Shown here one piece after another: positions 12,666 to 47,325 of a stretch of DNA of 64,000 nucleotides. This DNA is from Candidatus Moanibacter sp. (GTDB lineage: Bacteria > Verrucomicrobiota > Verrucomicrobiia > Opitutales > UBA2987), in assembly GCA_965215885.1 (NCBI GenBank), contig CBDCEW010000101.1:64001-128000 (forward strand), written 5' to 3'. The position numbers and the translations under genes are program-made. Position 1 is the first letter of the stretch. Each line of letters begins with the position of its first letter. The notes under the pieces were generated by a model, which saw only the letters and a program-made list of their open reading frames with translations, did no database searches and was not told the DNA's origin.

Positions 12666-12738
12666 CGAAACGCTCCCGCCCCGCTCAGCGGGCCTACGAG
12701 TCTCGGATATTTTCGTAGCGGAATGCGGAAGCATTTCG
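12666..12738. repeat. GTAG-type REP doublet with an inserted mini-hairpin
   Basis: CGTAGCGGAATGCGGAAGCATTTCG plus an inverted partner containing CCCGCTCAGCGGG. Confidence 0.55.
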
Positions 12739-12834
12739 TTCTCCTGGAGGAAATACCGTAGACCATTAGAGTGAGCAGATCTCGGCTTGAAATGTTCGCT
12801 TGTCAGTCGGAACGAATAGGGATAAATTCTATCT

Positions 12835-13053
12835 ATGCGTGGAGAATTTACTGTATTGATTGAGGCAGCTGAGGAAGGTGGCTTCTGGGCCACTTGCCCG
12901 GAGGTACCCGGAGCCAATGGTCAAGGCGAAACGGTTGAGAAGACAAAAGCCAACCTTGCAGAGGCCATTCGCCTGGTGATGCGAGATCGCGTAGAGGATG
13001 CCACTCGTGGATTGCCTGATGGCGCGATCAAGGATATCGTTACCGTTGAATGA
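12835..13053 (+). CDS. hicB: HicB-family antitoxin
   Basis: EEGGFWATCPEVPGANGQGET. Confidence 0.88.
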   Translation: MRGEFTVLIEAAEEGGFWATCPEVPGANGQGETVEKTKANLAEAIRLVMRDRVEDATRGLPDGAIKDIVTVE

Positions 13054-13238
13054 AGCGGTTTAGGCTGCTAAAGCATCTCAGGCGTAGCGGATGTTACTTA
13101 AAGAGAGAGGGTTCTTCTCATTCGTTGTGGATCAATCCTGAAAATGGGGTGACAGAGGCCGTGCCTCGGCACACCGAGGTCAAAGAAGGTTTAGCTCGGA
13201 AGATCTGTCACAGGCTGCAGATTCCGGACCCGAACTAG
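13050..13238 (+). CDS. hicA: HicA-family toxin
   Basis: REGSSHSLW..VPRH.E; overlaps hicB. Confidence 0.88.
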   Translation: MKRFRLLKHLRRSGCYLKREGSSHSLWINPENGVTEAVPRHTEVKEGLARKICHRLQIPDPN

Positions 13239-13288
13239 AGCAGAATGGGAGGAAGTAATGACCAATGTGTATTAGGTAAAGGGTAGAA

Positions 13289-14299
13289 GTGACAGACCGA
13301 ATACGCATGATCGTCGTTGGAGCGGGCCGCGGGCGCGCTCACTTGAAGAGTTTTCTGGCTTTGCCGGAGGCATTTGAGGTCGCCGGTTTGGTAGACCTGG
13401 ATGAGGAGCGATTGGAGAATGCGCTTGGGGAACACGAGCTCTCGCCGGATTTCGGATATACCTCCTACGACGAAGCGCTTTCGGAATCCGGCTGCGATGG
13501 AGTGATGGTGGCGACCTGGGCGCGCTCCCACGCTCCCCTGATCGAACAGGCAATGGATGCCGGGAAGCATGTTTTGGTGGAAAAGCCGTTTACGATCGAG
13601 TTGGCGGATGCGTTCCGCCTGCTCGAGATGGCGGAGGCGAAGGGGTTGAAGATTGTCGTCATTCAGCAGTGGCGCTTTCTTCCCGGTCAACGCACGGTAC
13701 GCCGGCTCATGAGTTCACTCAAGTACGGACAGCCGCAGGAGGGGCACCTGCTCTGCTACAAGGCGCGTGGAGGGGAGTATCCGGATTCGCCGCACTCTCA
13801 ACTTTGGCAGATGACGGTGCACGAGATCGACTCTCTCATTTCGATGATGAATCAGCCGGTGGTCGAAGTTTACGGACATTCCTTTCGCCCGCCGGAAACG
13901 ACGTGGAAGCGCGAATCGACTGCGACCGCGGAATTGAGATTCCGTAACGGATGCCGGGTGGTGATGGTCTCGACCTCGGACGCCCGCGTCGGCTCCTGCG
14001 AGTTTCGGGTCGAGTGCGAGCGCGCGGCCCTGGTTTACCGGGTTACAGCTCCCTTCGGTGGAACGGAATCGATATACTTGGGCGAAAGTCGTGAATCCGG
14101 CCTGCAGCCGCTGGCCATCGACGAGGGGCCCAGGGAGTCGCCGTTTCTCGATCGCCGCATAGCGGCCGGGTTTGCGGACTGGGTGCAGGGCGGTCCCGAA
14201 CCAGAGACGAGCGGCCGCAATAATCTGCAGGTACTGGGCGTCCTAGACGCACTCATGCAATCGGGAGAGAGCGGGAAGGCGATCGAGGTAGAGGTCTAG
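13289..14299 (+). CDS. Gfo/Idh/MocA oxidoreductase
   Basis: VVGAG.G, GKHVLVEKP. Confidence 0.88.
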   Translation: MTDRIRMIVVGAGRGRAHLKSFLALPEAFEVAGLVDLDEERLENALGEHELSPDFGYTSYDEALSESGCDGVMVATWARSHAPLIEQAMDAGKHVLVEKPFTIELADAFRLLEMAEAKGLKIVVIQQWRFLPGQRTVRRLMSSLKYGQPQEGHLLCYKARGGEYPDSPHSQLWQMTVHEIDSLISMMNQPVVEVYGHSFRPPETTWKRESTATAELRFRNGCRVVMVSTSDARVGSCEFRVECERAALVYRVTAPFGGTESIYLGESRESGLQPLAIDEGPRESPFLDRRIAAGFADWVQGGPEPETSGRNNLQVLGVLDALMQSGESGKAIEVEV

Positions 14300-14481
14300 C
14301 CCGAACCTTTCACAAACCATCTGCTGCGACCACGGATGTCACTGCGCCTCAAGGCCTTCTCTTGTCCGGCGACCTCAGAGAGTTCCAACACACTGTCGCC
14401 CGCCGGACTGCGAAAAGACCTTGATCCGCAGTCCCGGCACGCCGGGATCTCGCTACGATGTGTGTGAAATGTCCGGTCTAG
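14296..14481. mobile_element. MITE family 1, copy A (CTAG ends)
   Basis: About 25-bp imperfect TIR CTAGCCCG(A/G)AC.TTTCACA; homologous to 18316-18497. Confidence 0.8.
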
Positions 14482-14500
14482 TGTCGTGACACTGTTCTTG

Positions 14501-14774
14501 GGGTTTCAGGTGTCACTGGGAAGGTTTCAGGGGGCAGTGTTCAGGAGCTTCACACTTAAGTCCCCAAACAGACACGTGAAACCAAGAACCTCGAACCATG
14601 TTCAGTTTTCAACATCCAACGCCCAACATCCAATGTCCAAGTGGGGACCTCCGGTAGGACACTTTGTCGTAAGCTTTGTCGCGAACTTTGTCGAATTCGA
14701 TTCAACCAATCTCCTGATTCTCGGAGCATTAGGTCCTTCGTCGTCATATACACTAACACCCGAAACCTGACACC
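14501..14774. repeat. Nested short-period (7- and 12-bp) repeat arms
   Basis: GTTTCAGGTGTCA.. versus ..CCGAAACCTGACACC; CAACATC/CAACGCC 7-mers; CTTTGTCGNNAR x3 at 14662-14695. Confidence 0.6.
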
Positions 14775-14862
14775 ATTAACCGGCCACAGGCAGCGAACCA
14801 CCAGGCACCGGCCTCAAGCTTTGCGCTCGCGAAGTGCCGACAGAGCAATATCAGTTTCTCTA

Positions 14863-17616
14863 ATGGAGTTGGATTTACCTGTACCCGGGCAGCGCTGGGT
14901 GAGTGATTCCGAACCTGAACTCGGGCTCGGTATAATTGTATCGTCGGATTCAGGTCGGGTGGGGATTCTCTTCTCGGCGGCGCGGGAGCGTCGCCAATAT
15001 GCGTTGGAATCGGCTCCTCTACGCCGGGTGCACTTCAAAATTGGGGACAGGATCCGCACTCGCGGCGGTAAGGAGTTGCATGTCGAAGGCGTCGAGGAGA
15101 AGAATGGATTGCTGGCATACGAGGCGGATGGGTCAAAGGTGCCGGAAGCGGAACTGGCTGATTCCATCAGTTTCAGTAAGCCGGAGGAAAGATTCCTCGG
15201 TGGACAGATCGATGATCCGGAACTCTTCGATCTTCGGGTGGAGGCCTTGCAATGGCGAAGCCGGATACGAAAATCGCCCGTTCGAGGGTTTATCGGAGGG
15301 CGGGTGGACCTGATTCCGCATCAGCTATACATCAGCAGCGAAGTCGCCTCGCGACTGAATCCCCGTGTGCTTCTGGCGGATGAGGTAGGCCTTGGCAAGA
15401 CGATTGAAGCATGCCTGATCCTGCACCGGTTGTACCTGACCGGGCGAGCGGAACGAATCCTCATCCTTGTTCCGGAGTCGCTCATCCACCAATGGTTTGT
15501 GGAACTTTTGAGGCGCTTCAACCTGCTCTTTAATCTCTTCGACGAGGAACGCTGCGAGTCGATCCAGGGTGAGGATGCGCAGACAAACCCGTTTCTCGAT
15601 AGCCAATTGATTCTCTGCAGCATCGAATTCCTTGTAGCGGACCCGCGAAGATCGCGTGAAGTGACGAAAGCGGGTTGGGATCTGCTTGTGATCGATGAAG
15701 CGCATCACCTCATGTGGTCACCCGCGGAAGCGAGCGCGGAATATCTGCTGGCAGATGAATTGGCCTCCCGGACACCTTCCCTTCTTCTCTTGACGGCGAC
15801 ACCGCAACAGCTGGGAATGGAGGGTCATTTTGCTCGCCTGAGATTATTGGATCCTGATCGTTATTCGAACTTCGAAGCATTTATCGCCGAATCCAGGCAA
15901 TACATCGAAGTTGCTACGGCAGTGGATCGATTGATCGATGGCGCGCCGCTGGACAGCGCGGACCGGGATTTGTTCGCGGCGAGATCGCCGAGAATACATC
16001 GTGATTACGATGCCTTGATGGCTGGTGACGAATCGGCTCGAATACGGTTGATCGGGGAACTCCTCGACGCTTTTGGAACGGGACGTGTCATGTTTCGCAA
16101 CACGCGCACGGCCCTTACCGGGTTTCCGATTCGTCATGTGCACCTCTACCCGATCGAGCGCAGTGAATCGGCGGATTCCGATGCGAGTGTTGAAGCGTAT
16201 GGCAGGTGGCTTGCAAATCTCCTTAATGATCTGGGAGAAGAGAAGGTTCTTCTCATCTGCAAGACACCGGGTCTCGTGCGCGAGATCGAGGCGAGGCTGG
16301 AACGGGAGATCTCCGTTAACTGCGGTCAGTTTCATGAAGAAATGAACCTGATGCAGCGCGACCGCACGGCTGCCTGGTTCGCTGAGGAAGAGGGGGCACG
16401 CATCCTTCTCTGTTCGGAGATCGGCAGTGAGGGTCGGAATTTCCAGTTTGTGCACCATCTCGTATGCTTCGATCTGCCGGATGATCCGGAGCTGCTGGAG
16501 CAGCGAATCGGCCGTCTCGACCGCATCGGTCAGAACGAAGCCATTCACATTCACATTCCCTACGTTCCCGGTGGCGCCTCGGAAGTCATGGCTCGTTGGT
16601 ATCATGAGGGCCTGAATGCCTTCGAAGAGAACCTCCATGGGGCCACAGAGATCGCGTTGAATCTGAAAGCGGATTTGGATGGGTTGCGGCAAACGTTCGA
16701 TACCGTGGCGCTTGATCGGTTCGTGGCGCGGACCGCGAAACGGAAGAGCCATATAACGCGGAGACTCGAGCGGGGACACGATCGACTACTGGAATTGAAC
16801 TCTTCCAACCCGGAACGGGCGGAGGAAGTCATCAAGCGCATCCGTGCGAGTGACGCCGACAGCGAATTCGAAGATTTCATCCTGAATCTGATCGATCACT
16901 TCGGGCTTCGCCGGGAGGAGCATAGTGAGCGCACCTTTGTCCTTAAACACGGCGATCTCGTTACCGAAGATTTGCCCGGTTTGCCTGAGGAGGGTATGAC
17001 GCTGACTCTGGATCGAATAAGAGCTCTGAGCCGCGAGGATATTCATTTTCTGAGTGGAGACCATCCGCTCGTTCGCGGTGCACTCGACATCCTGCTCAGT
17101 TCAGAGTCGGGAAATACTGCCTATTGTATCTGGCCGCAGTCCGACGAAGAGGGTTTGGTTCTGGAGTTGCTCTCCGTGGCGGAATGTGTGGCACCGCCGG
17201 TTCTGCATGTTGACCGGTTCCTTCCTGCAACGGCCATTCGGACCGTAGTCGACCACGATCTCAATGATCTCAGCGATGACGCCGAGCTGCTATCCGCCCC
17301 GCTGCAAAGAGGAGATCCTGATCCCCTGATTTCGCGGAACTCATTCAGACGAAATGTTCTTCCCAGGATGCTCAGATCGGCGTTTGGCTTGGCTGAAAAA
17401 CGGATGCATGCTCTTGTAGCGGAGGCGAGGAGCTGCGGAGAGAATCACTACCAGAACGAAATCGATCGTCTTGTCGATCTCAAGGAGGTCAATGACCATG
17501 TGCGCCAAGAAGAGATTCAAGCGCTGATAGACGAGAAAGTCGCCCTGGCAGGCGTATTGGATTCCACCCATCTGCGCTCCGATGCCCTCCGGGTTATCTG
17601 GAAGATTGAGGCTTGA
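14863..17616 (+). CDS. rapA: RNA polymerase-associated SNF2 ATPase RapA
   Basis: GQRWVSDSEPELGLG, LADEVGLGKT, DEAHH, SEIGSEGRNFQF, EQRIGRLDRIGQ. Confidence 0.95.
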   Translation: MELDLPVPGQRWVSDSEPELGLGIIVSSDSGRVGILFSAARERRQYALESAPLRRVHFKIGDRIRTRGGKELHVEGVEEKNGLLAYEADGSKVPEAELADSISFSKPEERFLGGQIDDPELFDLRVEALQWRSRIRKSPVRGFIGGRVDLIPHQLYISSEVASRLNPRVLLADEVGLGKTIEACLILHRLYLTGRAERILILVPESLIHQWFVELLRRFNLLFNLFDEERCESIQGEDAQTNPFLDSQLILCSIEFLVADPRRSREVTKAGWDLLVIDEAHHLMWSPAEASAEYLLADELASRTPSLLLLTATPQQLGMEGHFARLRLLDPDRYSNFEAFIAESRQYIEVATAVDRLIDGAPLDSADRDLFAARSPRIHRDYDALMAGDESARIRLIGELLDAFGTGRVMFRNTRTALTGFPIRHVHLYPIERSESADSDASVEAYGRWLANLLNDLGEEKVLLICKTPGLVREIEARLEREISVNCGQFHEEMNLMQRDRTAAWFAEEEGARILLCSEIGSEGRNFQFVHHLVCFDLPDDPELLEQRIGRLDRIGQNEAIHIHIPYVPGGASEVMARWYHEGLNAFEENLHGATEIALNLKADLDGLRQTFDTVALDRFVARTAKRKSHITRRLERGHDRLLELNSSNPERAEEVIKRIRASDADSEFEDFILNLIDHFGLRREEHSERTFVLKHGDLVTEDLPGLPEEGMTLTLDRIRALSREDIHFLSGDHPLVRGALDILLSSESGNTAYCIWPQSDEEGLVLELLSVAECVAPPVLHVDRFLPATAIRTVVDHDLNDLSDDAELLSAPLQRGDPDPLISRNSFRRNVLPRMLRSAFGLAEKRMHALVAEARSCGENHYQNEIDRLVDLKEVNDHVRQEEIQALIDEKVALAGVLDSTHLRSDALRVIWKIEA

Positions 17617-18296
17617 AACCGTATCGACATCTCGCGGAAACGTTAACACCGGATTGCGCCACGCTCGCACTCTACGAGCACGACGGGACCTACTGCATCC
17701 GTCTGAACGGGCGGGAGCTCATGGATTCGGCCGCCCCCGCTTCCGAACTCATGCTTGGGGAACTGGGCACGAGCCGGCTTCTGAGCCGGGCGGATCCTTG
17801 TATTCTGATAGGCGGACTCGGTCTTGGTTTTACTTTGAAAAGTGTGCTCGAGAGGGTGGGGCCGCAGGCGAATGTGCTCGTGGTCGAATTGGTCCCTGAA
17901 ATAGTCGAGTGGAATCGGCGGTACCTTTCCGGACTAAATGCAAAGTGTCTGGATGATTGTCGGGTCGAAATACTGACGGCGGATGTGTGCGACGTCATTG
18001 TGAAGAGCGGACGGGACCGTTTTGACGCGATTCTGCTTGATGTTGATAATGGCCCGGCCGACAAGGCGCAGAGAAGCAGTGCTCGTCTCTATTACGAGAG
18101 GGGTATCCGGTCGATGGCACGGGCGTTAAAACCGGGCGGGCGCGTCGCCGTTTGGTCCGCCCGCCAAGACGCTGGGTTCATGAAACGCCTTAACAGGGCG
18201 GGTTTCCGTGTCGAAAGTGTTCCGGCGAAGCCCTATGCACAGGCAAAGCGTCCATCTTATACGATCTACGTGGCCGATCAGGGTAGATCCTCCTGA
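17613..18296 (+). CDS. Spermidine-synthase-like SAM-dependent methyltransferase
   Basis: LIGGLGLGFT, VELVPE, LLDVDNGP. Confidence 0.85.
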   Translation: MKPYRHLAETLTPDCATLALYEHDGTYCIRLNGRELMDSAAPASELMLGELGTSRLLSRADPCILIGGLGLGFTLKSVLERVGPQANVLVVELVPEIVEWNRRYLSGLNAKCLDDCRVEILTADVCDVIVKSGRDRFDAILLDVDNGPADKAQRSSARLYYERGIRSMARALKPGGRVAVWSARQDAGFMKRLNRAGFRVESVPAKPYAQAKRPSYTIYVADQGRSS

Positions 18297-18315
18297 TCTG
18301 TGAAGATCGATGCCC

Positions 18316-18497
18316 CTAGCCCGGACATTTCACAAACCATCTGCTGCGACCGCGGATCTCACTGCGTCTCAAAGCCTTCTCTTGTCCCGCGACCTCAGAA
18401 GGTTCTAACACGCTGTCGCCCGCCGGACTGCGATAGGGCATTGATTCACAGCAAGCTACGCGATCTCGCTACGATGTGTGTGAAATGTCCGGGCTAG
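18316..18497. mobile_element. MITE family 1, copy B
   Basis: CTAGCCCGGACATTTCACA...TGTGAAATGTCCGGGCTAG, perfect 19-bp TIR. Confidence 0.85.
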
Positions 18498-18542
18498 CTC
18501 ATCGCTTGACTTGTCGAGTAGTTAGGAGAATCCTCTGCCACT

Positions 18543-19334
18543 ATGGCTGAAGATAGTGATATGGGAAAAGGAAACGATCAAGTTGAAGGGGGTGGTTGGG
18601 GCGCAGTGCCGCAGGCCAAGAAAGAGGGCCGGGGACCAAAGATCTGGCTGGCAGGTGACCCTGAGGACCTGAAGGAATGGATGCCTCTCGGTATTGAGGG
18701 TATCGTCACTAACACAGTCGTGCTCAACCAGATGGTGCAGAAGTATGGCCAATTGATTGGCGTTGTGCAGCGTTACCTGGACATCACCGACAGACCTCTG
18801 GTGGTCGAGATCGACGGGCATACCGTGCCGGAGTTGCTCGAAGTGGGTCGTTGCTTCACCCGAATGTCGGATCAGGTTATCCTGAAGGTCCCCTGCGGCG
18901 TGAACGGATTGAGAGCCTTCGCCGCATTGAAGGATGAAGGTGTCGAAACCTTCTGCACAACGGTGTTCTCATTACCCCAGGCGGCCGCCGTAGCTCAGGC
19001 CGGAGTCGATCACATTTTGCCGTTTTGCGAACCTGTGAAGGAATTTGGCGGTGATCCCACTAAACTCATTCGCGAGTGCGCAAAGATGTTCAGCGGTTGG
19101 GAACAGCGCCCTTTTATTATGGCGGCGTTGGTGCGGTCGGTGGAGGTCGCCTACGCCGCCTTCCGGGATGGCGCCGACGAATTGGTGACCATGTGGACGG
19201 TCTACCGGGATATGATGGAGCATCCGCTCACCGACATCTGGAACAAGACATTCATGGACGAATGGCTTGCGATGCACGATGCCGGCCTCCTCGATGGGGT
19301 TCCGACGCGGTTAGGGGAAAAGGAAGGGAAATAA
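18543..19334 (+). CDS. Transaldolase / fructose-6-phosphate aldolase family protein
   Basis: GIVTN, ILKVP (Schiff-base Lys), TTVFSLPQA..AQAG. Confidence 0.8.
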   Translation: MAEDSDMGKGNDQVEGGGWGAVPQAKKEGRGPKIWLAGDPEDLKEWMPLGIEGIVTNTVVLNQMVQKYGQLIGVVQRYLDITDRPLVVEIDGHTVPELLEVGRCFTRMSDQVILKVPCGVNGLRAFAALKDEGVETFCTTVFSLPQAAAVAQAGVDHILPFCEPVKEFGGDPTKLIRECAKMFSGWEQRPFIMAALVRSVEVAYAAFRDGADELVTMWTVYRDMMEHPLTDIWNKTFMDEWLAMHDAGLLDGVPTRLGEKEGK

Positions 19335-19554
19335 CGCCCTCCTTCGCCAAGGCTTGTTTTCTTAAGAAGAAATTTCCCACTCGGAAATATAACCCGTTGA
19401 TGTTCAAGAAATATGGTTCTGTTCCTCCGTAGAGAAAGGCTCGCTAAGAAAACCTCATTGGAACATCCCGCTAAGCGGGACCGTACGGCAGACTCTACGA
19501 GATTGAAATATGAATAAGGAACGCAGGAAAGCCGGAATTGCACGTTGAATCAAC

Positions 19555-19660
19555 CCGCGGTTTTCTCAAATCCGTGGTCCCTTCCTCTTTATTCGCGTTC
19601 ATTCGCGGTTCTCTTACTCTCCTGTGGTTGCGGCTGTGCTGCGCTAGGGCGCTCTGTGGC
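19555..19660. repeat. 10-bp-period repeat module family (also 25692-25806, 27243-27498, 57100-57197)
   Basis: Shared CCGCGGTTTTCTC.AATCCGTGG, ATTCGCGTTC 10-mers and TGGTTGCGGCT..GC.GCGC. Confidence 0.75.
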
Positions 19661-19685
19661 TCTCAGTGGTGCTCTGAGACCCCTA

Positions 19686-20819
19686 CTAACCCTGCTTCTT
19701 GGCCCATCGGGCTTTCATTTTTTTCATTTCGGTGTTGAGCTCGATCTTCGGGCCCGGAGACTGATTTTTTCGGTTGTGGAGCCAGCGGCCCTGGTTATCG
19801 CGAAGCACAGGGAGGCGTTTGGAAACAGGCGGAGGCTTTGCCACTCGCGTGGGACGGTCGGCATACCAGTAGGCCACCGAAGCCATTTCGTTTGCCAGGT
19901 GATTGCCGTGGCCGTGTTCGATTGTGACCTTGATTTCCTTTTGAAACCGCACCGGATTTTCGATGTGGAAAACGTAGCTGGTCTGATAACCGTTGGTATC
20001 GGACTCGTGGATTGATGAGCCATTTCTGAGAAACGCGTTTGGCTGCATGCCCCATGCCTGGTTGAGATAGTCCTCGCTTCCGGTTCCATGGAGGTCGGGG
20101 GGCCACTTATAGCCGTCGACCCAGATCATGTCGTCTCCTTCTCCCCACCATTCTCCCTTAAAGTTCGTGACCGAAAGGTTACAACCCAGGTAGTGACCGC
20201 ATCCCTTGGTTTCGAGGATGACGTAGTTATTCCGCCAGGCGAGTCTTCCTCTGTTGGCAATGTTCGCCTCCGGCGCGTTGACCCGGATCTCATGACCCCA
20301 CCCCTGGGAGGGATTGGTCCGGCGAAACTCAGCGTGAAAGTAGCCTGAGTCGTCCGGAATCTCCTCCGTTGTCTCATAGTCAACGTAAAACCAGTTCCGC
20401 TGGATCTCCTTTCCCTCGTTCACAAGTTCCACCACCGCGCGCTCGCGAAAAGGCATCGGCGCATAACAGTTCAGGGCGCATCCCTTATTAAACTCGTTGT
20501 TGGTTTGGGTGGAGGCCGAGAAGAGGAGGGATTGGTAGCTGTTCACGATCCCGTGTCCCAGGCAAAAGAAGTCGCCCACCGGCACGAGGACGCTCGGATG
20601 CTTTGCATTGCCCCATGTAAACCGCAGAAGACATTCTCGCGATTGGCCTCGATTCGCCATCCAGATATGGGTGATGATGCCGGGTCCTTTAATGTCGGCG
20701 AGAATCCGCGACTCTCCCGGTTCAGTGTAAACGCAATCGGTGTTCCGGCCCGACCGATCCCAGGAAGAAGAGCGGCCTACCTTGCGATTCCGAATGATTG
20801 CCAGTTGATTCAGATTCAT
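19686..20819 (-). CDS. DUF2961 / GH172-family protein
   Basis: SSWDRSG.N.D, GPG.ITHIW, WWGEGDD, HGTGSEDY, IEHGHGN. Confidence 0.88.
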   Translation of the reverse strand: MNLNQLAIIRNRKVGRSSSWDRSGRNTDCVYTEPGESRILADIKGPGIITHIWMANRGQSRECLLRFTWGNAKHPSVLVPVGDFFCLGHGIVNSYQSLLFSASTQTNNEFNKGCALNCYAPMPFRERAVVELVNEGKEIQRNWFYVDYETTEEIPDDSGYFHAEFRRTNPSQGWGHEIRVNAPEANIANRGRLAWRNNYVILETKGCGHYLGCNLSVTNFKGEWWGEGDDMIWVDGYKWPPDLHGTGSEDYLNQAWGMQPNAFLRNGSSIHESDTNGYQTSYVFHIENPVRFQKEIKVTIEHGHGNHLANEMASVAYWYADRPTRVAKPPPVSKRLPVLRDNQGRWLHNRKNQSPGPKIELNTEMKKMKARWAKKQG

Positions 20820-21412
20820 GGTGAAATCAAATATTAGAGGGTTAATCTGGATTTGCTATTATGCGATAGTTAGAGCCTGTTCTGCTGCTCCAGATTTCGC
20901 TATTAAGTGGAAGAGTGGCAAGATAATCCGCAGAGTGCGCAGAGATCGCGGAGGGAGGCAGAGAATTGAGATACTCCGAGATCGAGAGAGAATAAGGAAA
21001 GCAGGAAAGCAGGAACCGATCGAATGATAGAACGAGGCGGGAGTCGACTTAGCCTCACTCTGCCGAACGGCAGAGACAAAAACGCGGTCTTTACAGTGTA
21101 CCTGTTCAGAAATCATCGGAGCAATCCCGCCCGGCGCATACGTGTAAACTCTACCCTTCCATAAGTCCCTTAAAGTCAATTTGTTGAAGCTTATTGCGAG
21201 CAAACGCAAAAAGCACTGCGATGCAGTGTTGTGCTGGAGCCTCGAGTTTCAACCCGAGGAAAAGGAGAAGCAACAGATCTGCGGTCTGGAGGACCGTCGT
21301 GAGCTTAGAGCCACAGGGCCCGAGCCTTGGTGGATCCGTGGACAAAATCCATTGTCAGATATCCGTTGGACCTTCGCTTGCAAATGGAGAAGATCCAGCT
21401 CATCGTCGATTG

Positions 21413-22285
21413 ATGGTTACGACAGCGGACATGCCGGTGGATTTGGATTGGCACCAACTTCCCGAAGAGGAAATCCAACATTTTGACGACAACGGTTACC
21501 TTGTCGTTCGTGATGTGCTCGACCGGCCGATGATTGATCGGGTGACGGCGGCGGCGGAACGTCATATTGCGAGCGACCGTCAGGAGAATCGGATCGCGAG
21601 CAAGGGGGGGCTTAACGACGGTTTTCGCAATTGCGTTGCCCTGGACGACGATTTTATTCCCCTTCTGACTCATCCGAAAGCGCTCTCAGTTATCGTTCAG
21701 CTCCTGGGCGCGCACGTGCAACTGATGACCTCTCACATCATCTATAAGTATCCGGATCCGCCCAGCGAGTCGGGTGCCGCGAAGACCCAGGGATGGCATC
21801 GCGACTACGGCGCAGCTACCAAGATTTATGGTAACCATGTTCCGCGGATCATGGTGAAATGCGCTTTCTATCTGAACGATCTAATGGAGCCGAATTCGGG
21901 CGCGACCCTCGTTGTGCCGGGAAGCAACCATAACACAAATCCGACTAAGGTAGCTGAGGGCGAATTCGGTCCGCCCGGTTACGTTGAACCGAAACTGCGG
22001 GCGGGCGATTGCCTGCTGTTCGAAAATCGCGTCGTCCACGCTTCGGGTCCAAACCTGACCCAACGAACACGGAAAGCGGTGATGTTCGGTTATGGTTTCC
22101 GATGGATCATGCCCATCGATTTTCGCCAGCAGGATACCGCCCTTCTGGAAAAGCTCGACCTGCCCGGACGCTATCTCGTCGGCGAGCGCTACCCGCCCAG
22201 CGTGGATTATACTCCCGGCGGTGGTGACAGCCCGCTCGCTCCGTGGTGTGAGCGGTACGGCGCTCCCGCGGTCAGGCCGGTCTAA
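21413..22285 (+). CDS. Phytanoyl-CoA dioxygenase family protein
   Basis: WHRD, VVPGSN, GDCLLF...HAS; start inferred. Confidence 0.85.
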   Translation: MVTTADMPVDLDWHQLPEEEIQHFDDNGYLVVRDVLDRPMIDRVTAAAERHIASDRQENRIASKGGLNDGFRNCVALDDDFIPLLTHPKALSVIVQLLGAHVQLMTSHIIYKYPDPPSESGAAKTQGWHRDYGAATKIYGNHVPRIMVKCAFYLNDLMEPNSGATLVVPGSNHNTNPTKVAEGEFGPPGYVEPKLRAGDCLLFENRVVHASGPNLTQRTRKAVMFGYGFRWIMPIDFRQQDTALLEKLDLPGRYLVGERYPPSVDYTPGGGDSPLAPWCERYGAPAVRPV

Positions 22286-22447
22286 ACCGATGCCCATTGG
22301 CGGCCGAACGGTGATCGATCTGAATTCTTGTACTCTGGTTGGACCAGTCCGTCAGGCTGAGGCCCGACTCGATGCCATAATCGATCCCTTTCACTGTATC
22401 CATTGCGCGAATGGCTCAGGGCAGGAAAGAGAATGGAAGAGTAACTA

Positions 22448-22528
22448 CCACGTTCTTGCGAACGCGGCTACTCTGCCGTACGGCAGAGTAAGTCGTTGAG
22501 ACTTGTAGCCGCGTTCGCAAGAACGTGG
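22448..22528. repeat. GTAG REP doublet (REPIN-like) with a central 18-bp palindrome
   Basis: 24-bp perfect inverted arms CCACGTTCTTGCGAACGCGGCTAC; same arms at 27875-27947. Confidence 0.85.
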
Positions 22529-22553
22529 TCGAAGACTCAAAACGACGACTTTA

Positions 22554-23624
22554 TCAGCAGAATCCCAGATACGCCCTGACGATATCGATGACCAGTGCGA
22601 TGTCGTATCGCGCCTCGTCGACGGAAGTACGGCATGGAACTCCCTCGGTAATGCAGGCGTGGAAGTGGCGCAATTCGCGCACGAAAGCGCTCTCCCATTC
22701 GATGGCGGGTTCCTTGCTGAAGCTCCGGCCATCTTCGTCGATGCCGTGAATCGTTAACCTTGAAGGTATACCCCGAGCAAACCCGCAAGGATATTCGAGA
22801 ATCGCTCTTCTGTCGTCTCCGTAAACTTCCAGTGTCTCTTCAAAGTCCCACAGTCTGGGCAGATCTATCCATGAGGCGGCGCAGCGCGCCCCATTCGCGT
22901 AGGCGAGGACCGTATTGATGGCGCGGCCCTGGTTCCAGATTTCCGTGCTGACGACGCATTCAGGCTGTCCTGCGATTAGACGAAGCCCGTAAATGTCGTG
23001 GATCATGCTGCCCGATATGGTGTGAAAAGCGCTCTGGACGTCCGGCGGCGCTTCACCAATTGCTTCCATTGTTGCAGATGCTTCCGCCTTCCGGGGCGAT
23101 TCTTCGTTGGGGAGGTCGTCGAATCGCTTGAGCCGGAAATTTCGCAGATGGAGTGCGTTGTCCGGGTGGAGGTGGTTGACCTGGATGAATCGGATGGAAT
23201 CCATGCTGTCTACCTCCTTTTGCGCGATCTCAAAGGCCGGGTCGTAGACCTTCATGTAGGCCACCATTCCAACCTTGTTGGAGGCTCGCGCGGCATCGAT
23301 GATAGCGTCCGCTTCCTGCAGGGAGTAACACATCGGTTTTTCGATGAGGACGTGCAGGCCGGCTTCGAAGGCACTGACCGCCACTTCCGTTTTTGGGTCG
23401 GAATGGCATAGGAGGATGGCGCCCAGGTTCATTTTGAGAAGTTCATGGTAGTCATCGGTATGAAATGGAACGTCGAAATCCGCTGCCATGGTGCGCGCCA
23501 GAGTCGGGGAGATATCACAGACCCCGGCAACTTCAAATTCGTCCGGCAACGCCTTCAAATTCGGCAGATGCTGGACCTGGGCGACAGCCCCGCAGCCAAC
23601 GACTCCAATGCGTATTCGGTTCAT
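22554..23624 (-). CDS. Gfo/Idh/MocA oxidoreductase
   Basis: IGVVGCG, HVLIEKP. Confidence 0.88.
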   Translation of the reverse strand: MNRIRIGVVGCGAVAQVQHLPNLKALPDEFEVAGVCDISPTLARTMAADFDVPFHTDDYHELLKMNLGAILLCHSDPKTEVAVSAFEAGLHVLIEKPMCYSLQEADAIIDAARASNKVGMVAYMKVYDPAFEIAQKEVDSMDSIRFIQVNHLHPDNALHLRNFRLKRFDDLPNEESPRKAEASATMEAIGEAPPDVQSAFHTISGSMIHDIYGLRLIAGQPECVVSTEIWNQGRAINTVLAYANGARCAASWIDLPRLWDFEETLEVYGDDRRAILEYPCGFARGIPSRLTIHGIDEDGRSFSKEPAIEWESAFVRELRHFHACITEGVPCRTSVDEARYDIALVIDIVRAYLGFC

Positions 23625-23748
23625 ATGCTCTTTCCTCTCATTGAATTGACCGCTCTTTCGAATTCAGAACATGATTAAAGTTTCAACCCGTGTCTTCTAT
23701 GCAGTTTTTGTAGATACCCAATGTAGGTAAGTCAGTAACAGATAGCTA

Positions 23749-25665: not shown

Positions 25666-26249
25666 AAGCTAAATCGTAGCTAATTCACAGTCACAGAGGG
25701 TCCTAGCGCGGCGTAGCCGCAACCAAAAAAGAAAGAGAGAACCGCGAATGAACGCGAATGGACACGAATGAAGAGGAAGGTACCACGGATTCGAGAAAAC
25801 CGCGGATTTGATGAAGAGGGGTTGGCAACGGATTGGAGAAGGCAGAACATCGAAGTAAAGACCTTCGGCGTTCGATGTTGAATGTTCGACATTTTCCACC
25901 GCCACAGCTTCCACTGCAATCTTTTAGCCGCACATACAACCCGTTGATGTTCAAAGTACATGGTTCTGTTGTTCAGAAAAGAATGTTTGGCTTCGAAAAC
26001 TTCAATGGACCACAGATTTCTCAGATCGTAGCCCTACCGATTCCTTTCCCATCCGTGGTACTGCGGAGCCATCCGTGGGCATACCTTTCTTCTCATATTC
26101 CTCTCTGTTTCCTCCTGTTCAATTCTCTTCTCGACAGAAGCACCTACCAGTTTGATTGCGGCTTTGCTGCGCCAGGGGTTCAGCGGTTCTGTCATACCAG
26201 AATAGGTGGGCAATGGAATGATCGATTTCACAGCGGCGACGGACTACTC

Positions 26250-26879: not shown

Positions 26880-27242
26880 TTTATGGCATATATGATCGCA
26901 GCCGTTCGATGGCAAAGAGAATTGAATCCGGGCGCGCCGGGAGAAACGGAGAAGAAGAGGGAATAATTCTCATCCCGGCAAGCCGGGACAAAGACGCAAA
27001 GGGGGGAGAGGAAGACCCCGATGTACGACAGGGCCAGCGTGTCTGGACTCCGCAGTACCACGGTCGGGAAGTCGAATGAAACGACCATGCTGACGGGGTT
27101 CTCTGAAAGGCAGGATGTCCTTGAGCTTGTATCCGAGCTTAAAGACTGTCTGGGGCTGGATTAGCCGGTGGTCGCGTCAAAGACTTCCAGTAACGGCAAC
27201 CCTTCGATTGGGTCAGGAAGCCGTTGATTTGCCGCGAAAGAA

Positions 27243-27498: not shown

Positions 27499-27542
27499 CC
27501 ACTCTTTCTTTCAATTTGTCGAAGCGAGATTGCCAGTCCGGG

Positions 27543-27833: not shown

Positions 27834-27874
27834 ATATGATTCCTGTGAAAAAGTCGTCGTTTCGGATTCCGTGA

Positions 27875-27947
27875 CCACGTTCTTGCGAACGCGGCTACAT
27901 ATATCAACGACTTAAGATACGTTGTAGCCGCGTTCGCAAGAACGTGG
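27875..27947. repeat. GTAG REP doublet around an IHF consensus box
   Basis: Arms as at 22448; TATCAACGACTTA at 27902-27914 matches WATCAANNNNTTR. Confidence 0.85.
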
Positions 27948-28034
27948 AGATTTCACACCGGAATTCTGTATTGGTATAGCAAATTCACCTGGCGAACAAT
28001 TCGGTCGGCATATACCAATATATGAAGCCTGGCC

Positions 28035-35856: not shown

Positions 35857-35877
35857 CCGAATTCCATCGAACATCCT

Positions 35878-38476: not shown

Positions 38477-38942
38477 GCTATCGGCTGATACACCCTTTCA
38501 ATTAGAAACCCTAGTCGGGCTGCTGCGTGGACATCGGTTGCTACCCTCACTAGATCTTGATCGTAGTCATGATCGCGAACTAAAATCGGAAGAAGGGAAG
38601 ATCGACTGGAGATCACGATTGAGAGGCACGATGGGAGTGAGGAGAACACGTTAGATCTTCCCTTCGTGATCCTTGGAGCGCAGCGATCTTTATCGAACCA
38701 TCTATCCGAGAAATCACTCCTACCACTCTCTGATTCACTTTGATCGAGCGTCAACTTTGTATTTTGGCCTGTTTAGAGGACGATTACGAGGACGAGAACG
38801 ATTGGATCGCTGGGTCGCGCGAGAACGCAGCAAGTTTCATTCCGCCGTACGGCAGAGTTTGATCCGGCAAGGGTCAACGCGCCGGAGCCCGGACTGACCT
38901 GAACTATCAAACCCCGGATACAGGCTTGGCTGATTTCCAGTG

Positions 38943-41435: not shown

Positions 41436-41496
41436 TCCCGGCGAGCCGGGATCGGACTTATTCGAACTGTTTTCATTCCCGGCTTGCCGGGACTAG
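41432..41496. repeat. 65-bp CTAG-bounded inverted repeat
   Basis: CTAGTCCCGGCGAGCCGGGA...TCCCGGCTTGCCGGGACTAG; overlaps the tonB stop codon. Confidence 0.7.
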
Positions 41497-41796: not shown

Positions 41797-42075
41797 GTAC
41801 TCGAGTTCGTAAATACGGTGATGTATGTCCCGGCATGCCGGGACTGGGGGGGTAGTGCAAGGCGCGCCCACGATGGACAGCCGGGAAGCGCTTTCCTCGT
41901 CGGCGCAACGCTGCAATACCCCCGGTGCCGCCCCATCCCTATGGGACCGGGCGCTTTTGGCGCTGGGCAGCGTTGGTCGAGTCGAGCAAGGGCTCCTGCC
42001 TGGAACGACTCGACCGCCTCCCCCAGCATCCAAAATCGCCTCGGCATACATCACCGTATTTACGAACTCGAGTAC
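41797..42075. mobile_element. MITE family 2 (279 bp)
   Basis: 31-bp perfect TIR GTACTCGAGTTCGTAAATACGGTGATGTATG; TAA on both sides. Confidence 0.88.
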
Positions 42076-42396: not shown

Positions 42397-44313
42397 GACC
42401 TTATCCGAAAAGCTACTGATTGGCCGCAAAGAGGCGCAAAAGGCGCAAGAAAAACTTGAGAAAAATCATTTTTTGGCTTGATAAAAAGTGTCGCAACATG
42501 CTAGTGTTTAACAACCTAAGATTAAGAAAGGAGTTAAACATGCCAACATGTGCGACAGAGGAGAACAAAAGCGATAAGACGCCCCTTAGCAACCTCATTC
42601 TGCCGGTTCCAGACACGGATTTCCGTGATTTTCTGGATGAAGTTGAAGAATTGGCCGGGTTCGCGGCGCAAATCATCGAGGCGATCGAGAAGGATCTGGA
42701 CGCCCATGCGCGTGAGAAGAAGAAACTTCGATTGGAAGATCGCAGGTTCTTTGAAGGGCGCACAGCGGAGCTGCCGGAGCTGGACATCGAGGAGGAGAAT
42801 ATTCTGGCTGCTGAATTGAATCTTGGGGCAGGCCGGCCGCGGATGCCGGCTTATGCGGTATACGTGTTCGTGATGATTCGAGGGTTTCTGGGTTCGTTGA
42901 CCACGAAACCGGCACGGCGGTTTGTGCGCGAGTCGATGAGCTTGTACGGATTTTTGCAGAGCGGGGGACTGAGAATGCCGGCGGTGACGACGATTCTGGA
43001 GAACGTGAACCTGGTCAGCCATACGACCCGCGAGTTGATCTTTGATAAACAGATTGGGTTTATCCTCCAGGAGCAATGGGACGATTTCGGGAAGCTGACG
43101 ATCGACAGCACCTCGGTGAAAGCAAACAGCTGCTGGCCCACCGATGGGAAGATTCTGAGCGGTCTTTTGATGCGGGCCAATCGTTTGGGTCAGAAGTTGC
43201 ATGTCTTCGGGCTGGAGGATTTTCGCAAGGGATGGGTTGGGCGTTGGCTGGAGGAAATGGACAAGCTGGAGTTTCAGATTTGTCTGGCCGCGGGCAAACC
43301 GAAGTCGAAGGGCAAGCTGAAGAAACACTACCGGCGGTTGCTCAAGCGGGGCCGCAAGGCGGCCGACTCACTAACGGGGGAACTGAGCCATCTTGAAGAG
43401 GGCCTGTCGATGGATTCACTGCCTCCCACTCGCCGGGAGCTTCTGGAGCGGGCATTGAGCCAGATCAGGGGCGATATTGCCGACGCCAAGCGGGTTGTTG
43501 AGTATGCTCATGATCGGGTGTTTCACGAAAAGAAGCTACCGTCCACACAGAAGGTCCTGAGCCTCTCGGACGGATCGGCGGCCTACATCAAGAAGGGCAG
43601 CCGCAATCCAGTGATCGGGTACAAGCCACAACTGGTTCGCAGCGAAAACGGTTTTGTCACCAGCCTGATCGTACCGCAAGGCAACGCGGCAGACTCCATT
43701 GAGCTGGCGCCGGCCATCGGCGATTCGATCAAGCGCACCGGTGTCATTGCTGAACTGGTCAGCACCGATGACGGATATGCTTCGGCGAAGGGACGCAAGG
43801 AGGTGCTGAGCATGGGGGTAAAGCAGATCAGTATCAGTGGGGCGAAGGGCAAGAAGTTGACCACCCCCGAGGACTGGGAGAGCGAGGCGTATCGCGAGGC
43901 ACGCCGCGATCGCTCCGCAGTGGAGTCGCTGATGTTCACGATTAAAGATGGATTTGCCTTTGGCGAACTCGGCCGCCGCGGCATCGATGCGGTAGGCGAT
44001 GAACTGCTCGAGAAGGTTCTGGCCTACAACTTCTGCCGCATCATACTGATGAAGAAACGCCGAGGGGAGGAACTGGAACAGGCAGCCTGAATCTGACCGC
44101 TTTGAAGCTCAGAGAAAAAAGCACCACGGGATGAGTATGCCTCCAGACAGCGGCAAATATACGTATTGTGCAGCAAGCCACGCCGATGGCCGCTCAATAC
44201 CTGCTCATCGGCAGCGCCGGCAGCCTAAAACCCGAAACCTGCCAGCCATAGGCTGGTCCGCCCGTGGCGGAGAACCTTAAACCGCCCGCTCGAAAGGCTT
44301 TTCGAATGGGGTC
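42397..44313 (+). mobile_element. IS5/ISNCY-like IS, copy 3
   Basis: TIRs; 6-bp TSD TAGCTT at 42391-42396 and 44314-44319. Confidence 0.95.
42540..44090 (+). CDS. DDE transposase
   Basis: Same protein as the other two copies. Confidence 0.9.
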   Translation: MPTCATEENKSDKTPLSNLILPVPDTDFRDFLDEVEELAGFAAQIIEAIEKDLDAHAREKKKLRLEDRRFFEGRTAELPELDIEEENILAAELNLGAGRPRMPAYAVYVFVMIRGFLGSLTTKPARRFVRESMSLYGFLQSGGLRMPAVTTILENVNLVSHTTRELIFDKQIGFILQEQWDDFGKLTIDSTSVKANSCWPTDGKILSGLLMRANRLGQKLHVFGLEDFRKGWVGRWLEEMDKLEFQICLAAGKPKSKGKLKKHYRRLLKRGRKAADSLTGELSHLEEGLSMDSLPPTRRELLERALSQIRGDIADAKRVVEYAHDRVFHEKKLPSTQKVLSLSDGSAAYIKKGSRNPVIGYKPQLVRSENGFVTSLIVPQGNAADSIELAPAIGDSIKRTGVIAELVSTDDGYASAKGRKEVLSMGVKQISISGAKGKKLTTPEDWESEAYREARRDRSAVESLMFTIKDGFAFGELGRRGIDAVGDELLEKVLAYNFCRIILMKKRRGEELEQAA

Positions 44314-45140: not shown

Positions 45141-45347
45141 TTACCATAATGCTTCTTTTGGAGAAATTGCCTTAAGCTCTTTTTTCAGGGTTTTGATTTG
45201 AATCCTTAATTCGTCCTTCTTGATTGGCGGAGCGGCTTTAAGATCCCGTTTCAAAGACTTCAATTCTAGCTTCTTATTCTTGATCTTTTCTTGAACTTCC
45301 GGCGACGCATGGTGTCGCATGGCTCCATCTGGTAGGAATTTTGTCAT
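45141..45347 (-). CDS. Small basic coiled-coil hypothetical protein
   Basis: 68-aa Lys-rich ORF overlapping the LRR start codon. Confidence 0.35.
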   Translation of the reverse strand: MTKFLPDGAMRHHASPEVQEKIKNKKLELKSLKRDLKAAPPIKKDELRIQIKTLKKELKAISPKEALW

Positions 45348-45381
45348 ACTGATTTAAGTTGGTTAACAGGCTACATGCCAT

Positions 45382-46134
45382 TCACTCAACGAACCTTTTC
45401 CGGAAACGCATCACATTGACTTGGGGTTTGTATCCTAGGATTTCTTTGGCAACGGAAAGATCAAGAAAACCGGTGTGTCCTTCATGCACATTCTCGGAGG
45501 CTCCATAGGTGAGGAGGAATTTCTCCGGGCCCCCGTAGTCGACCGCCAGCGTGAAGAGTTGCACGGCGTCAATGGGGGCCAGCAAGGTGCTGCAATGACG
45601 CAAATCCCGAGGCTCTGTAGTGCCGTTATAGGTACCGATGCGGATTCCTATGAAGCGCCGGCCGCAGACATTAACGAGGTACTTACCGGCCGCCTCGGCC
45701 ATGCATTTCATAGCTCCGTACCAGCCGTCCGGATTGATCTGGTCGACGGTGGAGAAAGTGGGGGGATCGCTGATCTTTTCATTCCAGCCGCTGGTGTGGT
45801 TGGAGCTGGCGTAAACGATTTTGCCCACGTCCGCTCGATGGGCGATTTCGAACAGTTGCATCTGCATCCCTATGTCGGTCATGCCACAGTCCGGTTCTCC
45901 GATTTTTGGGGCGCGCAGGTAGGCGAGAGAGATCAGGACATCCTGATCGGCACAGACTCGAGCGGCGAACTCCGGATCCCGCAGGTCCCCCACTTCGACG
46001 CGAGAGCGTGCGCCCTCAATCTCGCACTGATCGACGAGGGTCAGTTCGTAACGGTCCTCCGCCTCCCAGGCCGGCCAGAGGCCCGATCCGACCCTACCGG
46101 AAGCGCCGGTTAAAAGTACTCTCTTCTTACTCAA
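45382..46134 (-). CDS. NAD-dependent epimerase/dehydratase (uronate dehydrogenase-like)
   Basis: LTGASGRVG, ASSNH, YGAMK, RIG; TTG start inferred. Confidence 0.85.
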   Translation of the reverse strand: MSKKRVLLTGASGRVGSGLWPAWEAEDRYELTLVDQCEIEGARSRVEVGDLRDPEFAARVCADQDVLISLAYLRAPKIGEPDCGMTDIGMQMQLFEIAHRADVGKIVYASSNHTSGWNEKISDPPTFSTVDQINPDGWYGAMKCMAEAAGKYLVNVCGRRFIGIRIGTYNGTTEPRDLRHCSTLLAPIDAVQLFTLAVDYGGPEKFLLTYGASENVHEGHTGFLDLSVAKEILGYKPQVNVMRFRKRFVE

Positions 46135-46169
46135 GTATATCCCTTTCGTTTCTGTGTGTTCTGCTTTGA

Positions 46170-46388
46170 TCAAGAAGCCCATTTCATGGAGGGCTTCTTC
46201 TGATTTACTACGCAGTCTCTCAGATATGAGTTAATAAGGTTCTGGTAGGGGATGCCGGTTTCTTGAGCCAGCGCTTTGAAATAATCGAGGACGTCTACCC
46301 CCATGCGAATCGTAATTTGCTTTTTCAAACGCTTCGCATAAGGATTCCTTCTGAACTTTATTTTGCTTAGGTCGTATTCCTTTTTCAT
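46170..46388 (-). CDS. brnA: BrnA-family antitoxin
   Basis: MKKEYD.S..NPY..KKQITIR..YFK..GIPYQ.LIN..L. Confidence 0.85.
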   Translation of the reverse strand: MKKEYDLSKIKFRRNPYAKRLKKQITIRMGVDVLDYFKALAQETGIPYQNLINSYLRDCVVNQKKPSMKWAS

Positions 46389-46678
46389 CACTTGTTCTCT
46401 TGGTAGATTTTTCTTTCCTTCGCGGTCGCCTTGCGAGCCGAAATAATTCGGATGATATCTTCCGGCTCTCGATAGCAGTGACACGTCATCAGTGTGCGAA
46501 ATCGAAAGCTCTGACCGAGCATGAGAATCCGATCCTCGGTCTTATCATGATCGACGTCATAGAATTCGAGAGCATCCTCATCGAAGAACACGGTTTGAGC
46601 TTCTTCAAAGGAGATGCCGTGCTTTCGCTGGTTGGCGTGATTCTTCGCCTCATCCCATTCGAAATGAAGCTCGCTCAT
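46388..46678 (-). CDS. brnT: BrnT-family toxin
   Basis: FEWDEAKN..N.RKHGISFEEA..IRIISARKA. Confidence 0.92.
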   Translation of the reverse strand: MSELHFEWDEAKNHANQRKHGISFEEAQTVFFDEDALEFYDVDHDKTEDRILMLGQSFRFRTLMTCHCYREPEDIIRIISARKATAKERKIYQENK

Positions 46679-47325
46679 AACTACAATGTAATTAAGACAT
46701 GGACCGAAAGCAAGTCCCAAAATCCTTCAAGTTCAGAAAAGGAGATTTTAGGAGAATGCGGCACTCAACAACGTTCTGCCAGATTTTGGTAGACTCTTGA
46801 CATCCATGGCAAGCGAAGGTTGGTAGGTGTTTTGCATTTCTGAGGCTGCCCCGGGCTTGCACGCCTCGGCGAAGACGGGTGCCCGGGTGGGGCACGCTAA
46901 ACAGATACAAAGATTACGACGGAGTTTGGGAAGGAACCCTGCCCTTTAGCGGAGTCCTACAAGACTCATCGACAAGGTTCGCGCCAGGGTTTCGCGACGA
47001 GGTTTGAACAAAGGTGATTCGAGCTCCTCCTCTGAGTTTTCTCTTCCCTTTAGGCCGGAATACCCGAAAGGGAAACCTCGTCGCGAACCTTGTCGAATCC
47101 CTTTCGATTTTAGATCACGATTACGGATCGAATGGATATCCACCTGAATGTCTTCTCTGCCGTACGGCAGAGTAGTCGATTGTCGATTTCTGTTTCTCGA
47201 TTTTAGATTGCGATTATGAGGCGTTCGACGTTTTCGCGAACACGGCTCCATATAACAACGATTTACGGAGCACTGTAGCCGCCCCGCCCAGCGGAATAAC
47301 AACGTGGTGGTTTTTCAGCAGAATC

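Follow-up and report, generated by a model that had tools for sequence, protein, structure and literature searches.

The question raised by this locus is how perfect hairpins of 15 to 18 nt come to stand where another repeat would be expected to continue. The locus is a 64-kb stretch of Candidatus Moanibacter sp. (C101:64001-128000, contig CBDCEW010000101.1; hereafter the window), which belongs to a 6.36-Mb assembly of 105 contigs, 90% complete, labelled G000. A first interpretation made from the letters alone, called here the sequence-only reading, had proposed that a trans-acting mechanism writes such palindromes into DNA by replacement. The multiplication of short palindromic repeats (repetitive extragenic palindromes or REPs, NTS/dRS3 and their kin) is still called poorly understood in available excerpts of the literature (PMC8266576, PMC11893778). 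Comparison of filled and empty copies of the same repeats confirmed that the feature is real, derived, recurrent and rule-bound, and the genome offers a small GIY-YIG nuclease as a good candidate enzyme.

Hairpin families, replacement events and the junction rule

Three families of perfect hairpins were distinguished in G000. Family A (TCCCGGCnnGCCGGGA) is present in 283 copies, where an order-5 Markov model predicted 0.15, family B (TCCCGCnnnGCGGGA) in 139 copies (1.19 expected) and the core of family C (CTGCCGnnCGGCAG) in 141 copies (1.03 expected), and the reversed patterns, used as a second control, matched 0, 1 and 1 times. Genome-wide over-representation, which the sequence-only reading had called for, was thus established. 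The written unit has a fixed length, 16 nt in A and 15 nt in B, both of the form T...A, and 18 nt in C, the two outer pairs of which occur as symmetric subtypes (CT/AG 66, GT/AC 31, CC/GG 14 and TC/GA 5, n = 141). Looser versions of the cores gave 642 sites throughout the genome, of which 607 (95%) lay outside a gene set called by a crude in-script open-reading-frame model and covering 76% of the genome. Multi-copy DNA was touched by 72% of the intergenic hairpin sites, as compared with 40% of 3000 random intergenic positions. The surroundings are diverse, with 200, 114 and 103 distinct flank contexts for A, B and C, respectively, and the loops differ in 17 of the 18 contexts represented by at least three copies.

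A paralogue sharing both 30-nt flanks was found for 299 of the 642 sites; 260 of these had at least one empty allele, and 39 had filled alleles only. Alignment of filled with empty paralogues revealed replacement, not insertion, at many unrelated hosts. When five exact bases were required on both sides, 69 distinct events remained, and 66 were kept after removal of three in which the "empty" allele held another hairpin. All 66 lose between 2 and 66 nt, most often 7 nt (19 events), and none displays the target-site duplication expected of DDE transposons and miniature inverted-repeat transposable elements (MITEs), so that the earlier statement on this point held. Direct repeats of 2-3 nt across the flanks were in mild excess after de-duplication (A 23 versus 12.7 expected, B 13 versus 9.4, C 25 versus 12.7). 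A flank repeat of at least 3 nt accompanied 7 of the 66 exact events, and both of its copies pre-exist in the empty allele.

The replaced segments obey a strict rule, purine|C...G|pyrimidine, with self-pairing ends. Read on either strand, the replaced segment begins with C at 83 of 98 half-junctions in A, 31 of 33 in C and 18 of 36 in B, the background being 0.23 (C after a nearby purine). Pairing was evaluated on the 65 events of at least 5 nt, the single 2-nt event being left out. A C...G segment was lost in 47 of them, as against 1-16 when the window of comparison was slid by 1-6 nt; the first and last replaced bases were complementary in 53 (0.66 expected), and the first two paired with the last two in 32 (0.22 expected), a count reached by none of 5000 shuffles. 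The retained outer flanks paired at chance (0.35 versus 0.36). Since the lost ends pair and the flanks do not, the lost piece appears to be a segment closed by a stem of 2-3 bp and removed at its foot. The retained 5' neighbour was a purine on both strands in 124 of 200 contexts for A, 64 of 114 for B and 75 of 103 for C, and on neither strand in only 4, 2 and 1 contexts. Two other descriptions of the junction were rejected. Swapping of hairpin tips within long host stems fails as a general rule, the outer flanks pairing at chance and perfect extension of at least 11 bp being seen in only 6/228, 1/122 and 1/118 contexts; a fixed methylation or restriction motif fails as well, there being no motif beyond pyrimidines at -4/-3, the purine and the C.

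Such a rule could also arise if any nuclease nicked both strands 5' of a C and so produced a break, after which a host polymerase would add a copy of the hairpin to each 3' end and the self-complementary tails would anneal. This scheme accounts for the need for a palindrome, for the strand symmetry of the rule, for the variable length of the deletions and for the diversity of loops, possibly also for the slightly too frequent 2-3-nt flank repeats. Hybrids between donor subtypes would be expected under it, but a single CT/GT case was found in 72 family-C contexts; it leaves the pairing of lost ends beyond the preference for C unexplained; and no Ku gene was found in the 90% complete genome. We consider it improbable. 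A swap of one hairpin for another is favoured over annealed tails because the lost ends pair, the flanks remain unpaired and the donors are intact and symmetric, each event having used one intact donor.

The direction of change was read from two kinds of host. A pattern for a 173-bp MITE captured 58 full copies, 38 empty (36 of exactly 173 bp) and 20 filled, the latter carrying 23 perfect hairpins at five hot spots. In G000 too, hairpin C replaces CACTGGATTG in a dead tRNA-His copy and hairpin B replaces CCTGAAGG in a dead tRNA-Met copy, both by the junction rule. The empty MITE copies are uniform in length, and for the tRNA copies the ancestral sequence is given by the tRNA genes; the hairpins are therefore derived. 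That hairpins are instead ancestral motifs, terminators or assembly artefacts, with the empty copies decayed, is extremely improbable and already refuted by this polarity, common as hairpins are in intergenic DNA: a TTTT tract, as required of an intrinsic terminator, follows only 4 of 563 copies, and the same hairpins occur in other assemblies. Among the matches listed, hairpin C was found at 62 loci or more, 23 of them in nine named Verrucomicrobiota metagenome-assembled genomes.

Recurrence was likewise supported by the MITE. On a tree built with hairpins removed, and hence from only about 170 bp of sequence, the filled state required 20 changes by parsimony (shuffles 12-20, mean 16.9), and the nearest neighbour was empty for 14 of the 20 filled copies, the result expected if filled copies do not cluster. 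Apart from its hairpin, one filled copy matches an empty one exactly, and the events are therefore recent. We hold it very doubtful that the recurrence is mere inheritance, with only a few primary events that were copied among hosts by gene conversion or carried along when filled hosts transposed. The same junctions do recur within hosts and are common to the related genome G006, and the filled copies C54 and C86, mutual nearest neighbours, probably share one event. As the whole story this explanation is largely refuted by the diversity of contexts already given and the 66 distinct exact events, by the unclustered filled copies and their different loops at one junction, and by a site, CAGCCTG, that was replaced by A or by B; it would still require a primary writing mechanism.

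Some further observations concern the hairpins themselves. A fourth type, TCCTCCnnnGGAGGA, occurs once in G000 (C94:112883), at a junction where a paralogue has hairpin A; in two other genomes (L007, L008) it is seen plugging copies of tRNA-His. Copies of tRNA-Pro (L011, L012, L018, L020, L038, L041, L050, L092) are plugged by longer, nested hairpins that have TCCCGA...TCGGGA at their ends, and a TCCCG...CGGGA foot is common to families A and B and to distant metagenome loci. The viral contig IMGVR_UViG_3300029799_000063 (L226-L231) carries seven A hairpins, several within short tandem repeats, with no GIY-YIG gene within 400 nt of these loci.

Small GIY-YIG genes, tRNA copies and the swap model

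No responsible enzyme is visible in the window, as had been noted, and the trans-acting source held up. The candidate lies elsewhere in the genome. Both overwritten tRNA copies of G000 stand directly after a small GIY-YIG gene, itself placed after the intact tRNA, and hairpins lie 17 and 20 nt from two of the four small GIY-YIG genes. Among 52 other candidate genes from the screen, none has a hairpin within 100 nt, be it Y1 (0/27, and thus not RAYTs, the REP-associated tyrosine transposases, flanked by their own REPs), GxxExxY (9), four-helix-bundle (12), DUF559 (1) or reverse transcriptase (2, both group II intron-like by our own reading). Of the gene types that the sequence-only reading had listed for inspection, hairpins stand close to GIY-YIG, the candidate enzyme, and not to reverse transcriptase, DUF559 or RAYT/HUH genes.

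The intact protein, of 85 amino acids, matches PF01541 and keeps the invariant Y16, G18, R26, E62 and K66, with the size (about 80-100 amino acids) and residues of Ssn-type single-domain proteins. Its nearest solved relatives are UPF0213 structures (1zg2 and 1ywl, E ~1e-14), followed by SLX1 (1e-6 to 1e-3). A search for homologous proteins found none, viral contigs gave none, and NCBIfam offered no useful family. Relatives were present in 158 of 401 genomes of the phylum. Among 89 GIY-YIG loci, a tRNA lies upstream of the gene at 36 and a tRNA copy downstream at 20; of these copies, 15-17 were judged by eye to be overwritten. A script requiring a loss of at least 4 nt, applied to GIY-YIG loci, these included, and to two hairpin-picked loci, returned 26 such events, mostly from other genomes of the phylum (one artefact, L079, is kept in this count and one zero-length row excluded). 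Their ends pair in 24 (random tRNA segments 0.26) and form two pairs in 20 (random 0.07), or in 17 if three tRNA-Pro rows, for which a shorter alternative is possible, are read short; 14 of the 26 lost a C...G segment. Many of the lost mini-stems, such as CAG...CTG, CCT...AGG and CAA...TTG, do not appear on reading to be native tRNA stems.

Hairpins A, B and C recur beside small GIY-YIG genes in other genomes. In G024, picked by hairpin A alone, all four A copies lie in tRNA-Asn copies, two of them directly after GIY-YIG genes; in G057, picked in the same way, two clear and one partial of ten A copies lie in tRNA-Asn copies beside GIY-YIG. Hairpin B stands beside an intact tRNA-Met GIY-YIG gene in G006. 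Within a family of nine genomes, which as kin are not independent of each other, small GIY-YIG genes and hairpin B were found only in G000 (139 copies of B) and G006 (98), B being absent from the seven others.

The best model, to which we give an even chance, is that one hairpin is swapped for another in single-stranded DNA, the reaction being started by an SLX1-like GIY-YIG enzyme. Cuts would fall on both sides of a short loop-out, preferably one closed by C:G, where stem and single strand meet, and a donor hairpin would likewise be released at its foot; host ligation or gap filling would then fix the donor in place of the weak stem-loop. Target and donor would be single-stranded on the lagging strand or in an extruded cruciform. 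The hairpins would ride as minimal, non-autonomous passengers on a cassette made of tRNA gene, GIY-YIG and tRNA copy, kept only where selection tolerates them, in other repeats, MITEs and dead tRNA copies. It is the cutter, the single-strandedness and the joining route that we infer here. Joining is the weakest part of the model: GIY-YIG enzymes are not known to ligate DNA, so that the model needs a ligase or polymerase of the host, or else a strand-transfer step not yet recognised. More tentatively, with the balance tilted against it, the hairpins may be the smallest mobile elements known and the 85-residue protein a hairpin-swap recombinase, which would, in a new kind of reaction, cut out any short stem-closed loop of single-stranded DNA at its foot and exchange it for a donor hairpin. 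A defined sequence of 15-18 nt would thereby be written with no need for homology, an RNA guide or a transposase, and with no duplication.

Several observations weigh against the GIY-YIG swap. Folding by minimum free energy gives a stable hairpin in the replaced segment for a minority of events only, so that the loop-out is deduced from 2-3 bp. In family C, the unit of which often itself begins with C, the junction C may have been kept and not replaced. An overwrite was seen in only 10 of 32 distant metagenome loci with a tRNA-like copy (three 28-nt rows of that table repeat other rows); nine of the ten carry TCCCGA...TCGGGA hairpins, and five are near-identical. Near dispersed hairpin copies, GIY-YIG gave one weak match in 62 genome loci and none in 126 viral loci; neither G000 (90% complete) nor G006 yielded a GIY-YIG gene beside hairpin A, and the gene linked to B in G000 is frameshifted. 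Dead tRNA copies may be overwritten simply as tolerated targets, a reading for which the genome holds almost no GIY-YIG-free tRNA fragments as a control. The hairpins at L033, L043, L053 and L074 are flanked by repeated CG or CA, which looks like a duplicating mode. Finally, the same two genomes, G000 and G006, are precisely those in which long RAYT-like Y1 genes and GxxExxY genes have expanded, and co-occurrence therefore fails to single out GIY-YIG.

In an alternative account, the mover is an HUH (Y1) enzyme, most likely of the expanded long RAYT-like family, which would cleave single-stranded DNA and transfer strands twice over; the GIY-YIG cassettes would then be only tolerant targets. Enzymes of the HUH type need no ligase to rejoin the DNA that they cut, whether 5' or 3' of a hairpin (PMC3333891, PMC8266576); G000 has 29 Y1 matches, including about a dozen open frames of 330-440 amino acids, and G006 many more; and hairpin A has a GCnnGC core similar to the hairpins at the ends of a resident IS200-like element. 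We nevertheless regard an HUH mover as unlikely. Known cleavage by TnpA-REP is at C|T and CA, with a GTAG tag selecting the site (PMC8266576), and the junction here is purine|C, with GTAG within 7 nt of only 18/283 A, 6/139 B and 18/141 C copies (CGTC was not counted separately). Besides the lack of hairpins near Y1 genes reported above, G003, with 55 Y1 matches, has neither A nor B hairpins. The GIY-YIG swap is retained as the working model. One genome preserves dozens of before-and-after pairs, from which an exact cut rule, hot spots and an 85-residue candidate enzyme could be drawn, and the question is therefore testable with oligonucleotides.

Two further features of the GIY-YIG loci were observed. 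At L033, L043, L053 and L074, in tRNA-Asn and tRNA-Cys copies, two tandem T-loop hairpins are bounded by CG or CA/TG, possibly an insertion with a 2-nt repeat and a second writing mode. G000 (C95:78200-78816) and G006 (C3:~854400-855000) share a near-identical stretch with an end resembling a tmRNA or tRNA 3' fragment; the small GIY-YIG gene that comes next is not the same in the two genomes, nor are its repeats.

Sites in the window and neighbouring features

All the hairpins named in the sequence-only reading were found where it had placed them (Table 1), and the corrections concern mainly their boundaries. At the first site, replacement stood, and the unit is two bases longer than the 12680-12692 proposed, the lost piece being CATTCCG and not ATTCCG. 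In the MITE copy, 12 nt were replaced and not 10 (CAAGCTACGCGA in the empty copy). In the spacer of the REPIN-like host (REPIN, a hairpin-forming REP pair), the boundary is one base wider than noted, since the sister at 27875 has CAACGTATCT. The hairpin near 41827, noted as abutting the left terminal inverted repeat of the element called MITE-2, overwrites part of the element end and does not merely abut it. At 19466-19480, next to the right remnant of a C hairpin, the presence of a hairpin was verified; the sequence said to be replaced there is not demonstrable, because all four matching copies, the site itself included, are filled. The hairpin at 26973-26988 lies in a tandem repeat, which blurs the boundary so that two lost pieces are compatible with it, and 59138 carries a different 49-nt insert. 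As for the copies described as free, only that at 60291 has no paralogue; empty paralogues exist for 38840-38857 and 47155-47172, and 21058 has a repeat context. In four public sequencing runs, the contigs over window positions 8800-28200 were shallow, and none of the pieces listed bridges a hairpin site.

Table 1. Features of the window (window coordinates) and genes elsewhere in G000 (contig given).
Position	Strand	Feature	Remark
12679..12693	.	hairpin B variant CCCCGCTCAGCGGGC	replaces CATTCCG in one arm of a REP-like pair; two empty paralogues, CATTCCG and CGTTCCG
14300..14476	+	173-bp MITE copy filled at hot spot 4	paralogue comparison
14432..14447	.	hairpin A TCCCGGCACGCCGGGA	replaces 12 nt starting with C; six commonest empty alleles 12 nt, 28 copies in all
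18320..18492	+	empty 173-bp MITE copy, ancestral state	paralogue comparison
19466..19480	.	hairpin B TCCCGCTAAGCGGGA	adjoins right remnant of a C hairpin (19481-19493); no empty allele found
21058..21075	.	hairpin C, loop AA	diverged repeat context seen elsewhere; no exact empty allele
22448..22528	.	REPIN-like host with hairpin C in spacer	
22471..22488	.	hairpin C CTCTGCCGTACGGCAGAG	replaces 10-nt C...G spacer, e.g. CAACGTTTCG, CAAGATCTCG
26973..26988	.	hairpin A	in CGCAAAG-type tandem repeat; lost piece CG or CGCAAAGCCG
27875..27947	-	empty sister of REPIN-like host	spacer CAACGTATCT
38840..38857	.	decayed hairpin C	replaces 6-nt C...G segment, as seen in each of three empty paralogues
41436..41451	.	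hairpin A	absent from the sequence-only reading; no exact empty allele
41477..41492	.	hairpin A	absent from the sequence-only reading; replaces CAGGCTG
41828..41843	.	hairpin A	overwrites ~11-12 nt of element end
47155..47172	.	hairpin C in short tandem-repeat tract	empty paralogues end ...AATCG
60291..60305	.	hairpin B TCCCGCTCGGCGGGA	no paralogous site
C36:37748-38002	-	small GIY-YIG gene, intact	85 amino acids
C105		small GIY-YIG gene, frameshifted	
C59:10306, C36:22995 (+), C89:58220, C104:142587, C44:44610, C103:171308, C88:46208, C36:70614, others		long Y1 genes	

The window also holds three copies of one insertion sequence with a 556-residue open frame (23972-25642, 33065-34735 and 42420-44090), whose internal palindromes are found some 120-125 times apiece genome-wide, which suggests a recent burst of about 120 copies. 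Elsewhere in G000, the long Y1/HUH genes (frames of 330-440 amino acids), which are expanded here and in G006, have a common C-terminal motif and no obvious flanking REPs. GxxExxY and four-helix-bundle genes (e.g. C104:176318, C104:28009, C101:129455) are flanked by their own short tandem repeats; repeats of this kind are frequent hairpin targets, those of GxxExxY type among them. At C96:15506-16034, the 173-bp MITE, in its empty form, splits a GxxExxY gene.

Comparison with known systems

The hairpins are not REPs, Ssn/SRM repeats or a DDE element. The comparisons below draw on accessible portions of the papers cited. The closest parallel in organisation is Ssn of Neisseria, where SsnA, a single-domain GIY-YIG protein, cuts single-stranded DNA just upstream of a hairpin (PMC11893778, Chenal et al. 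2025). In both cases a small single-domain GIY-YIG gene has adjacent hairpin repeats, with hundreds more throughout the genome, and the authors suspect a domesticated mobile element (PMC11893778). By contrast, the NTS has no copy here at up to three mismatches, and the SRM is found within 500 nt of none of the four resident GIY-YIG genes and none of 90 loci. The present hairpins are shorter, untagged and perfect, the nuclease is UPF0213/SLX1-like, and the genes are lodged in tRNA genes; neither a spreading mechanism nor a replacement footprint is given for Ssn in the accessible text (PMC11893778).

REPs, bacterial interspersed mosaic elements (BIMEs) and REPINs, together with RAYTs, are likewise short intergenic palindromes in hundreds of copies, handled as single-stranded hairpins (PMC3333891, PMC8266576, PMC3733652). 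The nearest published remark that we found, by Di Nocera et al., is that REPs are inserted inside other palindromes (among PMC3333891, PMC8266576, PMC3733652). The families described here differ in lacking the GTAG tag, in their freely varying flanks, in the absence of dimers, BIMEs or an adjacent RAYT, in the deletion of target DNA and in a junction footprint of purine|C, as against cleavage at C|T or CA. The IS200/IS605 elements have distinct left and right end hairpins around a cargo and insert with no loss of target, whereas one symmetric hairpin and a deleted target are seen here, and the Y1-rich G003 is without A or B.

The candidate belongs to the SLX1/UPF0213 proteins (PDB 1zg2, 1ywl, 7cq2), and SLX1 cuts branched DNA near junctions; it is, however, a repair nuclease with no DNA-moving role in the accounts cited, its bacterial members being only predicted to act in repair (PMC1564403, PMC9071465). 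SegB, a free-standing GIY-YIG enzyme of the T4 tRNA cluster, cuts a tRNA motif and spreads itself (PMC2330249), and only the location next to tRNA is common to both; SegB recognises a 27-bp double-stranded site and homes by recombination, with no hairpin writing reported in that text (PMC2330249). The GC clusters of yeast mitochondria are also tiny, GC-rich, palindromic and non-coding mobile DNA for which the help of an endonuclease has been proposed; they are longer (42 nt for the one studied) and make AG or ACT target duplications (PMC4478555), whereas the target is deleted here.

No description of replacement by mini-hairpins, or of the arrangement of tRNA, GIY-YIG and tRNA copy, was found in searches of open-access literature. 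In practice, hairpins that plug tRNA copies and repeats may be mistaken for terminators or small RNAs in genome analysis, and the nuclease, should it be able to join DNA as well, would make a very small sequence-writing tool. Small nucleases partnered with hairpin repeats are of a known kind; spread by replacement of stem-closed segments matched no family tested and, if the swap is true, would be a categorically new mode of spread.

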